A stretch of 64,000 nucleotides of DNA. It comes from Actinomycetes bacterium (GTDB taxonomy: Bacteria; Actinomycetota; Acidimicrobiia; Acidimicrobiales; RAAP-2). The notes under the pieces were generated by a model. The model was given only the letters and a program-made list of their open reading frames with translations, had not been told where the DNA came from and did not search any database. Of this stretch, positions 29,056-53,380 are shown in pieces (positions within the stretch are counted from its first letter, which is position 1; every line of letters starts with the position of its first letter). Location: assembly GCA_021845725.1 (NCBI GenBank), contig JAJZVL010000003.1, positions 1,806 to 65,805 of the forward strand, written 5' to 3'. The translations under genes were made by a program, and so were the position numbers.

Positions 29056-29817
29056 CTACACCCCTGGCCCCTCCGATCCGCGTGCGCGCAGACCGAGGCC
29101 GGCGACCGGGCCGACGACGATGACGGCTGGAGGCCCGAGATCGACTTCGGCGAGCCCGGCGAGCGTCGTGCGGACCGTGCGCTGGGCCGGGGTGGTGCCG
29201 TTCTGGATCACGGCGACGGGGGTGTCGGGGCATCGACCGGCGGCGATGAGCGCAGCGGCGATGGCAGCGCGCGAGGCCATGCCCATGAGGATGACGAGGG
29301 TGCCGCCAGTGCGGGCGAGCGCTGCCCAGTCCGGGTCGTGGCGGCACCCCGACGACTCGCCGGCATGACGGGTCTGGCCGGTGACGATCGTCACTGACGA
29401 GGCGAGGCCCCGGTGCGTGGCCGGGATCCCGGCTGCGCCCGGGACGCCGAGGGCCGAGGTCACCCCGGGGACGATCTCCCAGGCGATCCCCGCACGCTCG
29501 AGGATCTCGATCTCCTCGCCGCCACGCCCGAAGACGAACGGGTCGCCACCTTTCAGTCGCACGACGATCGCGGCCGTTCGTCCGTGCTCGACGAGCAGGC
29601 GTCCGATGTCGTCCTGGCGGTGATCGGCTGCCCCGCTGTCGGTTCCCGGTTGCTTGCCGACGTCGATGCAGAGCGCCTCGTTCCGGACCAGGCGCAGGAC
29701 GTCAGACGTGACGAGGCGGTCGTAGAGCACGACATCGGCGCTGCGGAGGAGCTCTGCCCCGCGGAGGGTGAGGAGCCCTGGGTCACCGGGTCCTGCGCCG
29801 ACCAGGTACACCGTCAT
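29056..29817 (-). CDS. cobA: Uroporphyrinogen-III C-methyltransferase (SUMT)
   Basis: MTVYLVGAGPGDPGLLTLRGAELLRSADVVLYDRLV, GGDPFVFGRGGEE. ATGA overlap with the upstream gene. Confidence 0.9.
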   Translation of the reverse strand: MTVYLVGAGPGDPGLLTLRGAELLRSADVVLYDRLVTSDVLRLVRNEALCIDVGKQPGTDSGAADHRQDDIGRLLVEHGRTAAIVVRLKGGDPFVFGRGGEEIEILERAGIAWEIVPGVTSALGVPGAAGIPATHRGLASSVTIVTGQTRHAGESSGCRHDPDWAALARTGGTLVILMGMASRAAIAAALIAAGRCPDTPVAVIQNGTTPAQRTVRTTLAGLAEVDLGPPAVIVVGPVAGLGLRARGSEGPGV

Positions 29818-30791
29818 CGCGCCCCGCTCTCTGTGGGCATCTCGGGGTCGTCGGTCTGCTGCGGAGCTCTCATGTCGCCGTGGCGCCGAAGGGCGCGCTC
29901 GAGCCGAGCGAACTGGTCGTGGCGGGGGACCGCGACGCGCACGGTGCCCTCCAGCCCGAAGCTGGCGCAGTCACGCACGACGATCCCCTCGGTCAGCAAC
30001 GTCGTGCGGAGCGTCCCGGACCGGCTGACGAGGACCCACGGCCCCTGACCTGCGCTGACGGAGTGCCCGTGCAGGCTGAGGAGATCGGCAAGCTGCTCTC
30101 GGAGCGCCGCGGTCCGGCGCGACCACGCCGGGAGGTCGACCGGTCGCAGCAGGTCGGGAAGGGCGGCTGCTGCCAACCCGTTCACCGACCACTCGGGTTG
30201 GGCGCGGCGGATCTGGCGCACGAGCCGGTCGTCGGCGCAGAGCACGTACCCGAGGCGGAGCCCGGGGCACGCGAGGAGCTTGGTCAGCGACCCCACCACG
30301 ACGGACCCCTTCAGGTGGTCGCCTCGAGTCCACGTGCCCGAAGCGATCGGCCAGAATGCCTCGTCCCACACCCCTGCCTCTGCGTCCGCCGGGGCGAGCG
30401 TCCCGAGGGGATTGTTCGGGTTGGACCTCCACCGGGGTCCGCCCGCGCGTGGGTACAAGGAGAAGTCGGGTTCGTCGACCGTCCCTCCGAGCACCGATCC
30501 GGTCAGCGCGATGGCCTCCGCACCGCCGTTCGTGAGCACGAGGTGCTCGGGTTCCACGCCCATTGCTTCGGCGAGCGCCGCCGTGGCACGGGACGGATCC
30601 GGATAGCGGCCGATGGCGTCGAGGTGCGTGCGCAGGACGCCCGTGGGGTCGGGCGCCACGGGGCAGAGGCTCGCTGACAGGTCCAGGACGGATGCGGGGT
30701 CGATCCCGAGCTCTGCGACCAGGCGTGCGCCGTTGCCACCGTGCACTTCTCGACCGGCGTGCGAGACGCCGGGCGCTGGCGAGCGCGTCAA
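29814..30791 (-). CDS. cobC: Aminotransferase-fold cobalamin biosynthesis protein (L-threonine-O-3-phosphate decarboxylase type; CobC in Pseudomonas/Mycobacterium naming, CobD in Salmonella naming)
   Basis: N-terminal HGGN motif, class I/II aminotransferase body, and its position in the cob operon. The start is uncertain: TTG 30791 overlaps the cbiB stop, or GTG 30767. Confidence 0.8.
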   Translation of the reverse strand: MTRSPAPGVSHAGREVHGGNGARLVAELGIDPASVLDLSASLCPVAPDPTGVLRTHLDAIGRYPDPSRATAALAEAMGVEPEHLVLTNGGAEAIALTGSVLGGTVDEPDFSLYPRAGGPRWRSNPNNPLGTLAPADAEAGVWDEAFWPIASGTWTRGDHLKGSVVVGSLTKLLACPGLRLGYVLCADDRLVRQIRRAQPEWSVNGLAAAALPDLLRPVDLPAWSRRTAALREQLADLLSLHGHSVSAGQGPWVLVSRSGTLRTTLLTEGIVVRDCASFGLEGTVRVAVPRHDQFARLERALRRHGDMRAPQQTDDPEMPTESGAR

Positions 30792-31792
30792 GGGACGTCT
30801 CGGCGGCTTCGGCGGGCCCCCCTCGGGCGTACGACCCGGACCAGCGAGGGACGTACGACTCGGACCAGCGAGGGGAGGGCGAGAGCCGTGGCTGCGGTGA
30901 AGGTGACCCGGCGAGCGAGGCGGCGGGCGCGGGCGATGTCCTCGGTGTCGGCGACGCGCCCGTGGCCCAGCTCCCCACGATGCTCAGCGACGCCGCCGTA
31001 GCTGTTCGTCCCGCCGAGGCGAACGGCGAGTGCAGCGGCGAAGGCGGCTTCGACCACGCCGGCATTGGGGGAGGGGTGGTTCGGGGCTTGCTGGCGCACG
31101 GCCCGCACGATGTGCGCGGCGCGGCGCGGCACGCACAGTGCGACGAGCACGGCCGCGATGCGTGCCGGCACGAAGTTGACGATGTCGTCGGCACGTGCCG
31201 ACGCCCAGCCGAAGTGCCGGTAGCGGTCGCTGCGGTGACCGACCATCGCGTCGAGGGTGTTCACGGCGCGGTAGGTCGCCGAACCGATCGGGCCGGCCAC
31301 TGCTGCCCAGAACAGCGGCGCCACGACGGCATCGACACTGTTCTCCGCCAGTGATTCCACGACCGCCCGGGCGATCTCGGCCTCGTCGAGGCCTTCGGGG
31401 TCGCGTCCGGCGAGGGCCGGGAGCACTCGGCGCGCCACGTCGGGGCGTCCGGAGGCCAACGCCCCGGCGATCTGCGAGGCGTGCCGATCGAGGCTCCGGG
31501 CGCCGAGCGTGGTGGCGACCACCGCCACGGCGAACGCACGCTCGGCTGCCATGCCGCCGAAGCGTCGGGCCGTGGCACCCAACACCAGCGTGGGGAGCCC
31601 GGCCACCGCGAGACCGGCGCAGAGGTGCCGTGCGCCGCTCCACCGGTCATCGCGCCACGCCACCGCTTCGCGCCACGCCATGGCTCGGCCGAACCAGGCC
31701 ACGGGGTGCAGCCCGTCTCGAGGATCCCCGACGAGGTGGTCCAGTACCACGGCCGCCGCAGCGGCCGCCCCCCGTGATCGCCATCCGGTCAC
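30788..31792 (-). CDS. cbiB: Adenosylcobinamide-phosphate synthase (CbiB; CobD in Pseudomonas naming)
   Basis: VLDHLVGDPRDGLHPVAWFG and membrane protein character. GTG 31792 forms a GTGA overlap with the cobS stop. The 533-aa ORF in the track is an Arg-rich over-extension. Confidence 0.85.
   Translation of the reverse strand: MTGWRSRGAAAAAAVVLDHLVGDPRDGLHPVAWFGRAMAWREAVAWRDDRWSGARHLCAGLAVAGLPTLVLGATARRFGGMAAERAFAVAVVATTLGARSLDRHASQIAGALASGRPDVARRVLPALAGRDPEGLDEAEIARAVVESLAENSVDAVVAPLFWAAVAGPIGSATYRAVNTLDAMVGHRSDRYRHFGWASARADDIVNFVPARIAAVLVALCVPRRAAHIVRAVRQQAPNHPSPNAGVVEAAFAAALAVRLGGTNSYGGVAEHRGELGHGRVADTEDIARARRLARRVTFTAATALALPSLVRVVRPSLVRVVRPRGARRSRRDVP
30828..30875 (-). repeat. 24-bp tandem duplication (2 copies, 2 mismatches) inside the 3' end of cbiB
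   Basis: CGTACGACCCGGACCAGCGAGGGA followed by CGTACGACTCGGACCAGCGAGGGG on the plus strand. On the minus strand this encodes PSLVRVVR PSLVRVVR. Confidence 0.9.
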
Positions 31793-52602: not shown

Positions 52603-52630
52603 GCACGGCAGCCGCCACCAGGCTCTCGAG

Positions 52631-53380
52631 ATGACCGGCATCGCGGTGATCGGCGTGGGCATGGGCGAGCCCGAGCACCTCACCGGCCAGGCGGTGGCGG
52701 CGCTCAACAGCGTCGACGTCTTCTTCGCTCTCGACAAGGGCTCCGCAGCCGACGAGCTCTTCCATCTTCGCCACGACCTGTGCCGGCGCGTCATCACGTC
52801 GCACCCGTACCGGTTCGTCGACGTGGAGGATCCACGCCGGGATCGCGGCGCCGCCGACTACGGTCGAGCCGTCGCCGACTGGATCGCTGCCAGGGCCACT
52901 GCGCTCGGTGAGGCGATCAGGCGAGAGCTCGGGCCAGGTGAGCGCGGGGGATTGCTTGCCTGGGGGGATCCCGCGTTCTACGACAGCACGCTGCGGGTTC
53001 TCGACGCGCTCCTCGACCCGGTGGACGTCGAGGTGATCCCCGGGCTGAGCAGCATCCAGATGCTGGCCGCTGCCCACCGGATCTCCTTGACGCGGGTCGG
53101 TCGGCCCGTGCAGGTGACGACCGGACGTCGCCTGGCGGCCTGCGGCTTCCCGTCCGACTGCGACGACGTCGTCGTCATGCTCGACCCAGAGTGCTCCTTC
53201 CGTGACGTGGACCACGTCGGCGTGACGATCTACTGGGGTGCCTACCTCGGGAGCGAGCACCAGATCCTGATCTCCGGCGAGCTGGATGCCGTCGCCGACG
53301 AGATCGTGGCGGCGCGGGCAGAGGCCAAGCGCCGCCGGGGTTGGGTGATGGACACCTACCTGCTGCGCCGCAGCTCGTAG
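52631..53380 (+). CDS. cobF: Precorrin-6A synthase (deacetylating)
   Basis: MTGIAVIGVGMGEPEHLTGQAVAALNSVDVFF, LAWGDPAFYDSTLRVL and IPGLSSIQMLAAAH. Length approximately 250 aa. Confidence 0.8.
   Translation: MTGIAVIGVGMGEPEHLTGQAVAALNSVDVFFALDKGSAADELFHLRHDLCRRVITSHPYRFVDVEDPRRDRGAADYGRAVADWIAARATALGEAIRRELGPGERGGLLAWGDPAFYDSTLRVLDALLDPVDVEVIPGLSSIQMLAAAHRISLTRVGRPVQVTTGRRLAACGFPSDCDDVVVMLDPECSFRDVDHVGVTIYWGAYLGSEHQILISGELDAVADEIVAARAEAKRRRGWVMDTYLLRRSS

Follow-up and report, generated by a model that had tools for sequence, protein, structure and literature searches.

A mosaic cobalamin biosynthesis locus in an Acidimicrobiia genome, with CobF and aerobic-clade CobK in the place of CbiD

The cobalamin biosynthesis locus described here occupies positions 29056-53380 of a 64,000-nucleotide stretch of Acidimicrobiia DNA (hereafter the window; GenBank assembly GCA_021845725.1, contig JAJZVL010000003.1, positions 1,806 to 65,805). 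As judged from its sequence and those of its relatives, the locus is best explained as a working, B12-repressed mosaic cobalamin pathway. A cbi-type block, consisting of a cobalamin riboswitch, CobI/CbiL, CobM/CbiF, a CbiG-CobJ/CbiH fusion, CobH/CbiC and the chelatase CbiX-long, descends from the cbi-type clusters of Acidimicrobiia and is set in a backbone of CobO, CobB, CobL, CobF, CobK, CobQ, CobN-ChlID and BluB-CobT, which very close relatives pair with the oxygen-dependent cobG-H-I-J module. The combination of CobN/ChlID, CbiX and the CbiG-CobJ fusion is the standard design of cobalamin-producing Acidimicrobiia. The rare trait of the window is CobF which, together with a CobK of the aerobic clade, replaces CbiD. 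We regard the locus as a rare variant, in effect a swap experiment made by nature, and not as a new kind of pathway.

The DNA derives from a metagenome-assembled genome (MAG) of 3.05 Mb in 150 contigs, 92.5% complete, the nearest named relatives of which are Acidimicrobiia MAGs. The GC content of the window is high, 63-76% per 2-kb step. The genome is referred to as G000, and two sister MAGs with the same design as G101 and G102.

Results

The cbi-type block, its partners and regulation

Genes were called by Pfam and NCBIfam scans of long open reading frames (ORFs), and bit scores were compared with the family cut-offs. All cobalamin genes named in a first-pass annotation of this DNA were present. 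The mixture of late-insertion and early-insertion markers reported there, CobN-ChlID and CobF together with CbiG-CobJ and CbiX, was likewise found to be real, and neither textbook route fits it.

The plus-strand operon (44523-53380) has the order cobI, cobM, cbiG-cobJ, cobH, cbiX, cobO, cobB, cobL, cobF and is headed by a cobalamin riboswitch (44338-44505, plus strand; RF00174, 90.3 bits). Its first five genes, all on the plus strand, encode the CobI/CbiL C20-methyltransferase (44523-45302; TIGR01467, 186 bits, above cut-off), which in the tree belongs to the Acidimicrobiia cbi-type lineage, the CobM/CbiF C11-methyltransferase (45299-46087; TIGR01465, 277 bits), a full-length CbiG fused to CobJ/CbiH for C17 methylation and ring contraction (46084-47772; CbiG_N 3-82 of 82, CbiG_C 1-117 of 117 and TP_methylase; TIGR01466, 296 bits), the CobH/CbiC methylmutase (about 47781-48395; PF02570, 181 bits) and CbiX-long, with two CbiX domains in one frame (48316-49359; PF01903 twice). 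The operon ends with cobF (52580-53380, plus strand), a member of the precorrin-6A synthase family (TIGR02434, 317 bits, cut-off 196) that matches the CobF structure 3nd1 of the PDB over its full length (E 1e-60). The precorrin-6A reductase CobK, of the aerobic-type clade, is encoded upstream of this operon (about 41001-41831, plus strand; PF02571, 242 bits; NF005968, 312 bits).

The cobaltochelatase large subunit CobN (34927 to about 38481, minus strand, start approximate; TIGR02257, 1165 bits, above cut-off) and its partner, a fused ChlI/ChlD protein of the AAA+/VWA type (33023-34927, minus strand; 548 bits with TIGR02442, 'putative cobaltochelatase'; Mg_chelatase, AAA_lid_2 and VWA domains), belong to the minus-strand operon, which is headed by a second riboswitch (40796-40920, minus strand; RF00174, 89.5 bits). 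No other cobalamin riboswitch occurs in the genome. Since each operon is led by one of the two, CbiX and CobN are both B12-regulated.

Search for ring-contraction oxygenases, CbiD and precorrin-2 dehydrogenase

The first-pass annotation had found no CobG, CobZ or CbiD in the window, and this holds for the whole 3.05 Mb assembly. CbiD (PF01888) gave zero matches, CobZ (TIGR02485) nothing above 25 bits, and the sole genome match of CobG (TIGR02435) was a NirA-like ORF of 621 amino acids on contig C124. A tblastn search of the genome with the CobG of one relative and five Acidimicrobiia CbiD proteins was negative. The C124 ORF was considered as a divergent CobG and rejected: it scores 308 bits with NirA against 159 bits with CobG, and it adjoins CysG-N and FrhB/FdhB-like genes. 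The true CobG proteins of the relatives are about 400 amino acids long and score higher with CobG than with NirA, the reverse of the C124 protein. The sister MAG G101 likewise lacks CobG and CbiD, and no CobG-type ORF was found in G101 or G102.

A stand-alone cbiD gene was present in G102, on contig C15 (9.4 kb), beside a gene for an FNR-like oxidoreductase. The insert (L195:3657-6170) comprises cbiD, the FNR-like FAD/NAD oxidoreductase gene and a 100-aa ORF, and lies between a DUF2249 gene and a gene for a 465-aa protein. In the window genome the two flanking genes are adjacent (C71:315-536 and C71:707-2212, with a gap of about 170 bp), and the missing CbiD is therefore not an assembly gap. 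The G102 bin contains duplicated cob contigs in addition to cbiD and probably represents two populations binned together; the absence of CbiD is claimed for G000 and G101 only. A lineage holding cbiD and cobF together would fit a redundancy stage en route to replacement.

The precorrin-2 dehydrogenase, which the annotation had not seen, is indeed outside the window, but the genome encodes one: a gene of the CysG-N type for a precorrin-2 dehydrogenase/ferrochelatase lies at C124:5238-5852 (TIGR01470, 113 bits, cut-off 62). At this locus (L007, C124:5238-9527) the CysG-N gene is divergent from the NirA-like gene, which is followed by a gene for an FrhB/FdhB-like protein with a 4Fe-4S dicluster domain, an arrangement resembling that of F420-linked sulfite reductases. 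The genome has a single gene for uroporphyrinogen-III C-methyltransferase (SUMT), at the end of a B12-riboswitch operon, and yet contains this NirA-like, presumably siroheme-dependent, enzyme. As the sole SUMT is in a B12-repressed transcript, siroheme supply would hinge on that transcript, unless there is an internal promoter. Neither CobW nor a cobalt importer was found among the scanned ORFs of the window; no whole-genome search was made for these families.

Three cluster designs in Acidimicrobiia

The CbiG_C domain was found in only 7 of 101 sampled Acidimicrobiia genomes, five of which have CbiD and the other two CobF. The clusters of relatives were mapped with the proteins of the window, and family searches were run on the genomes behind the loci. 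Three designs could be distinguished.

Type A combines CbiD, CbiG-CobJ, CbiX and CobN and was assigned to eight genomes (G047, G087, G060, G016, G004, G108, G109, G110). Where mapped (G047, G087, G060, G108), the order is cobO-cobB-cobI-cobM-cbiD-cobL-cbiG/cobJ-cobH-cbiX, plus cobN-chlID; in G109 and G110 cbiX or cbiD is on a separate contig; G016 and G004 were assigned from family searches only. The type A mix also occurs in a locus from Chloroflexota (L011), and a locus from Planctomycetota (L027) has the same gene set with separate cbiG and cbiH. No CobK/CbiJ was detected within 10-20 kb of the type A loci L184-L187, L193-L194 and L008-L011 with several CobK/CbiJ queries (E 1e-3).

Type B has CobG, a CobJ of the aerobic clade, CobF and CobN (G083, G103, G104, G105). 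The CobG-like ORF is of about 400 amino acids, and the copy of G103 scores 227 bits with CobG against 134 bits with NirA. The clusters of G083 and G103 also contain cobH-I-J, cobM, cobL, cobF, cobK and cobN-chlID. A NirA-like protein is encoded in three of the four type B genomes, and CbiX was not found anywhere in any of the four.

Type C, with CbiG-CobJ, CbiX, CobF and CobN, comprises the window, G101 and G102. G101 is syntenic with the window over 20 kb at about 90% identity. A literature search found no paper on a cluster with CobF and CbiG that lacks CobG as well as CbiD. CobN does not mark the route within this class, since each of the 16 producer genomes examined has it, whether of type A, B or C. 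The mixing of markers noted in the first-pass annotation is thus real, but two of its four elements are ordinary: CobN/ChlID with CbiX and CbiG-CobJ is the standard of the class and occurs in Chloroflexota and Planctomycetota as well.

Mosaic structure of the locus

The backbone of the type B genome G103 matches that of the window gene for gene: cobA to cobN, the gene of an FhuF-like protein and cobQ, then cobK, then cobO-cobB, cobL-cobF and bluB-cobT. The G103 backbone is 72-91% identical to that of the window and 81-96% identical to that of G102. The stretch of the window with the NCS1-PfkB gene, the riboswitch and cobI-cobM-cbiG/cobJ-cobH-cbiX corresponds to cobJ-I-H-G in G103, which has an additional CbiL-like gene and cobM between cobB and cobL.

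In the trees, CobJ, CobH, CobI and CobM of the window cluster with the type A (cbi-type) Acidimicrobiia. The type B CobJ and CobH, and the CobI of the cobG-H-I-J block, belong to an aerobic actinobacterial clade with Rhodococcus and Thermobifida, while the type B CobM and the extra CbiL-like gene remain, on long branches, in the Acidimicrobiia lineage. For CobL, CobB and CobN, the sequences of all three types fall into Acidimicrobiia clades, and the CobN tree tracks the backbone across the cluster types. CobK and CobF of type C group with type B and other aerobic-type clusters. The second CbiL-like gene is situated upstream of cobM in type B (L096:6907-7632 and L099:6939-7640 in G103; L188:12954-13595 in G083). 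Its branches measure 1.0-1.7 substitutions per site and it scores below the cut-off of TIGR01467 (147 bits); it could be left over from a cbi-type block or have acquired a new function.

In the CobN, CobB, CobL and CobF trees G102 is nearer to G103 than to the window, with symmetric branch lengths and no acceleration. The identities between G102 and G103 are 93% for CobN, 90% for CobF, 88% for CobB, 85% for CobL and 81% for CobK. As the type C genome G102 is nearer in its backbone to a type B genome, the cassette was exchanged within a very shallow lineage. The backbone and the early block are at similar distances from type A and the trees are polytomous, which is compatible with a recently imported, foreign early block as well as with a vertically inherited early block and a derived type B.

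CbiX-long

A single copy of CbiX was found in the genome by tblastn, inside this locus. Of the genomes examined, all 11 of types A and C encode CbiX and the four of type B do not. The chelatase co-varies with the CbiG/CbiH module and is missing in type B although three of those genomes have a NirA-like siroheme enzyme, and is thus tied to the module and not to a need for siroheme. The CbiX of the window contains VNCDVCAYR followed by HSHLAAEHRHHAGDHSGDHAGHDSGDH... and aligns with a Priestia protein (Bacillus megaterium group) with MNCDTCQYR...HHHHHDHDHDH. It has the MxCxxC Fe-S motif, with Val for Met, and the His-rich C-terminus; the NCDxCxYR motif and the His-rich tail are also shared with the type A CbiX proteins. 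A 24-bp tandem repeat in five copies (49232-49353; 94% match, Tandem Repeats Finder) encodes the His/Asp-rich tail, the length of which varies between the window, G101 and G102.

Selection on the locus genes

The ratio of nonsynonymous to synonymous substitution rates (dN/dS) was estimated by the Nei-Gojobori method between the window and G101 or G102 for 21 locus genes. It was 0.10-0.37 in all 21, at dS values of 0.2-0.9: 0.15 for CobN, 0.12-0.34 for ChlID, 0.23-0.29 for CbiG, 0.19-0.35 for CbiX and 0.27-0.33 for CobF. All locus genes are under purifying selection and none is decaying.

Remaining genes and neighbourhood

The remaining genes of the plus-strand operon encode the corrinoid adenosyltransferase CobO (about 49371-49961, start approximate; TIGR00708, 192 bits), the a,c-diamide synthase CobB/CbiA (49958-51340; NF002204, 463 bits) and CobL, a fusion of CbiE and CbiT (about 51340-52602, start approximate; TIGR02467, 154 bits; TIGR02469, 103 bits). 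A BluB-CobT fusion for synthesis and activation of the lower ligand lies just past the 29056-53380 stretch (53407-55131, minus strand; TIGR02476, 233 bits; PF02277, 219 bits).

The minus-strand operon runs from about 40723 down to 29056 in the order cobQ, FhuF-like gene, cobN, chlI/D, cobU, cobS, cbiB, cobC, cobA. Besides CobN and ChlI/D it encodes the cobyric acid synthase CobQ (39200 to about 40723, start approximate; NF001989, 581 bits), the cobinamide kinase/guanylyltransferase CobU (32505-33026; PF02283, 143 bits), the cobalamin synthase CobS (about 31789-32508, start approximate), which at 93 bits falls slightly below the cut-off of 110 for TIGR00317 and matches several PRK00235 models, the adenosylcobinamide-phosphate synthase CbiB (30788 to about 31760, start approximate; PF03186, 291 bits; TIGR00380, 205 bits, above cut-off), an aminotransferase resembling threonine-phosphate decarboxylase of the CobC/CobD type (29814-30791; PF00155; TIGR01140, 149 bits, below cut-off) and, as the final gene, the SUMT CobA (29056-29817; NF004790, 283 bits, and TIGR01469, 273 bits, both above cut-off). 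A second SUMT copy was sought by tblastn, and CobA is the only one in the genome.

Between cobQ and cobN, within the riboswitch-controlled operon, an ORF of 241 amino acids (38478-39203, minus strand) encodes an FhuF-like putative [2Fe-2S] protein with weak, sub-threshold FhuF and FhuF_C matches and a C-terminal Cys motif of the 2Fe-2S type. It is kept at 67-87% identity in G101, G102 and the type B genome G103, and is not found in the more distant type A and B clusters. The ORF was considered as a substitute for CobG and rejected, because G103, which has CobG, carries it as well. It may be a reductase or a cobalt-delivery helper for CobN.

The interval separating the two operons holds cobK and a single ORF (41779-44277, minus strand; 832 amino acids) in which a nucleobase-type NCS1 permease (PF02133) is fused to a ribokinase-family PfkB kinase (PF00294). 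It is conserved in G101 and G102, and in all three type C clusters it takes the exact slot of the type B cobG-H-I-J. Uptake and phosphorylation of a riboside, alpha-ribazole for example, would be a speculative function of the fusion.

At 27292-29003 (plus strand), genes for a flavin reductase and a luciferase-like monooxygenase are found; the identity of the monooxygenase to that of G101 (98%) exceeds that of the cob genes. On the other side, adjoining bluB-cobT, lies the gene of a heavy-metal ATPase of the P1B type that has a hemerythrin domain at its C-terminus (55186-57543, minus strand; 94% identity in G101). Its neighbours encode a YgaP-like membrane protein and an ECF (extracytoplasmic function) sigma factor that carries a zinc-finger domain.

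Discussion

The observations made here concern gene content, co-variation, phylogeny, regulation and selection, and from them we infer every chemical step. We propose, with a probability of roughly 0.55, that the pathway uses early cobalt insertion by CbiX-long, oxygen-free ring contraction by CbiH/CbiG and C1 methylation by CobF instead of CbiD. CobA would form precorrin-2, which the CysG-N-type dehydrogenase of C124 would oxidize to sirohydrochlorin, and CbiX-long would insert cobalt into the latter. CbiL and then CbiH would follow, the latter contracting the ring without oxygen; CbiF would act next, and CbiG would remove the C2 fragment by hydrolysis. CobF would then methylate C1 in place of CbiD, and CobK, CobL, CobH and CobB would complete the corrin. 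CobN-ChlID may provide a second, ATP-driven cobalt chelatase. The early route is supported in that the dehydrogenase making the substrate of CbiX is encoded in the genome and CbiX itself is behind a cobalamin riboswitch. The first-pass annotation held that the route could not be assigned from the window; the comparison with relatives shows a mosaic of modules and favours early cobalt insertion with oxygen-independent contraction. It had also named what would make the pathway a plain aerobic one, a cobG or cobZ elsewhere together with a CbiX serving only siroheme and a dispensable CbiG domain; neither gene is in the genome, and CbiX tracks CbiG/CbiH.

Several points weigh against the proposed route. 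To our knowledge, CobF has been characterised on metal-free precorrin-5 only. CobN-ChlID has no obvious substrate in a pure early insertion, yet it is present in 16 of 16 genomes and under strong purifying selection. The solved structures closest to the CbiX of the window are SirB ferrochelatases, and its suggested preference for cobalt over iron is deduced from co-variation, as the sequence does not separate the two metals. The genome is an incomplete MAG. The main weakness lies in the downstream enzymes. The intermediates of type B must be metal-free, and an 81-93% backbone identity between types C and B without acceleration fits equally well, or better, with the same metal-free substrates in both.

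The last point leaves real room for a late insertion of cobalt after an oxygen-independent contraction, although on balance we regard this as rather unlikely. In such a pathway the CbiH/CbiG module would feed metal-free precorrin-5/6 into the CobF-CobK-CobL-CobH-CobB-CobN/ChlID line of type B, and the Fe-S protein CbiX-long would assist the contraction without being the permanent inserter of cobalt, a step that CobN would carry out late. The symmetric branches and high identities of CobF, CobK, CobL, CobB and CobN between G102 and G103, the purifying selection on CobN-ChlID and its retention in all the examined genomes of types A, B and C, and the metal-free nature of the known substrate of CobF would all be expected. 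However, a metal-free, oxygen-free ring contraction is not known (PMC7242693), no defined role would remain for CbiX-long despite its perfect co-variation with the module, and the precorrin-2 dehydrogenase that would supply its substrate is encoded in the genome. A pathway broken at C1 methylation or ring contraction is improbable. The locus would then be a recent recombinant, non-functional or dependent on cross-fed intermediates; modules have clearly been swapped among co-occurring populations, and one related bin retains a separate cbiD, but the type C layout is common to three MAGs and has persisted over dS values of 0.2-0.9 with low dN/dS in every gene, and both riboswitches are intact, at about 90 bits.

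We give very little credence to a hidden oxygenase replacing CobG in an ordinary aerobic route, in which CbiG would act in a CobE-like manner and CbiX would serve siroheme synthesis. One candidate would be the pair of luciferase-like monooxygenase and flavin reductase at 27292-29003, which adjoin cobA both here and in G101 (98% and 86% identity) and were not seen beside cobA in the type B genome G103, where 917 bp were available. The pair, however, converges on cobA at the end of a distinct plus-strand array and belongs to neither of the riboswitch units; the type B genomes with siroheme enzymes have no CbiX, and the CobJ domain of the window is in the cbi-type clade. That cobG or cbiD simply sits in the unassembled 7.5% of the MAG would be conceivable at 92.5% completeness in 150 contigs, but hardly deserves weight: the type B cobG lies inside the cluster, where the window contig, contiguous across the locus, has other genes, G101 and G102 are also without a CobG-type ORF, and the cbiD site on C71 is empty. 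Early insertion with oxygen-free contraction and CobF in the role of CbiD is the reading that we prefer.

The SEED subsystem rules treat 'CobF or CbiD' as alternative roles (PMC4403557), and in Rodionov-style signatures CbiDG and CobFG are route-specific, mutually exclusive pairs (PMC6593275). The window has CobF and an aerobic-type CobK at the usual place of CbiD beside a full CbiG, a pairing that these signatures deem mutually exclusive. The 'aerobic' and 'anaerobic' B12 routes swap parts module by module, which bears on pathway calls from metagenomes. The sister genomes differ essentially only in the contraction/chelation cassette, with downstream enzymes 81-93% identical. This pair makes testable the metal indifference of the downstream corrin enzymes, the action of CobF on cobalt-precorrin-5B and the role of CobN in CbiX clusters. 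If late insertion were true, it would also explain the retention of CobN in many CbiX/CbiG/CbiD clusters elsewhere.

Compared with the early-insertion route of Bacillus megaterium and Salmonella enterica (CbiX/K, L, H, F, G, D, J, E/T, C, A), the window shares CbiX-long with the CxxC motif and His-rich tail, and its genome has the precorrin-2 dehydrogenase, CbiL, CbiH, CbiF, a full CbiG and enzymes of the CbiET and CbiC lineages, and no oxygenase. It differs in lacking CbiD, with a CobF-family methyltransferase and an aerobic-clade CobK at those two steps, and in having a co-regulated CobN-ChlID chelatase. With the late-insertion route of Pseudomonas denitrificans and Rhodobacter capsulatus (CobG or CobZ, J, M, F, K, L, H, B, NST) it has in common CobF, CobK and a CobN-type chelatase; here the differences are the absence of CobG/CobZ, the cbi-type CobJ fused to CbiG, CbiX-long and the ChlI/D fusion instead of CobS/T. 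The type A clusters (G047, G087, G060, L011, L027) resemble the window in both chelatases, the CbiG-CobJ fusion (two separate genes in L027) and the lineage of CobI, CobM, CobH, CobL and CobB, but have CbiD and no CobF, whereas the window has CobF and CobK and no CbiD. The type B sisters (G103, loci L096/L192; G104, G105 and G083) have an aerobic-clade cobG-H-I-J and a second, fast-evolving CbiL-like gene, with neither the CbiG-CobJ fusion nor CbiX in the genome, and share with the window an identical backbone order.

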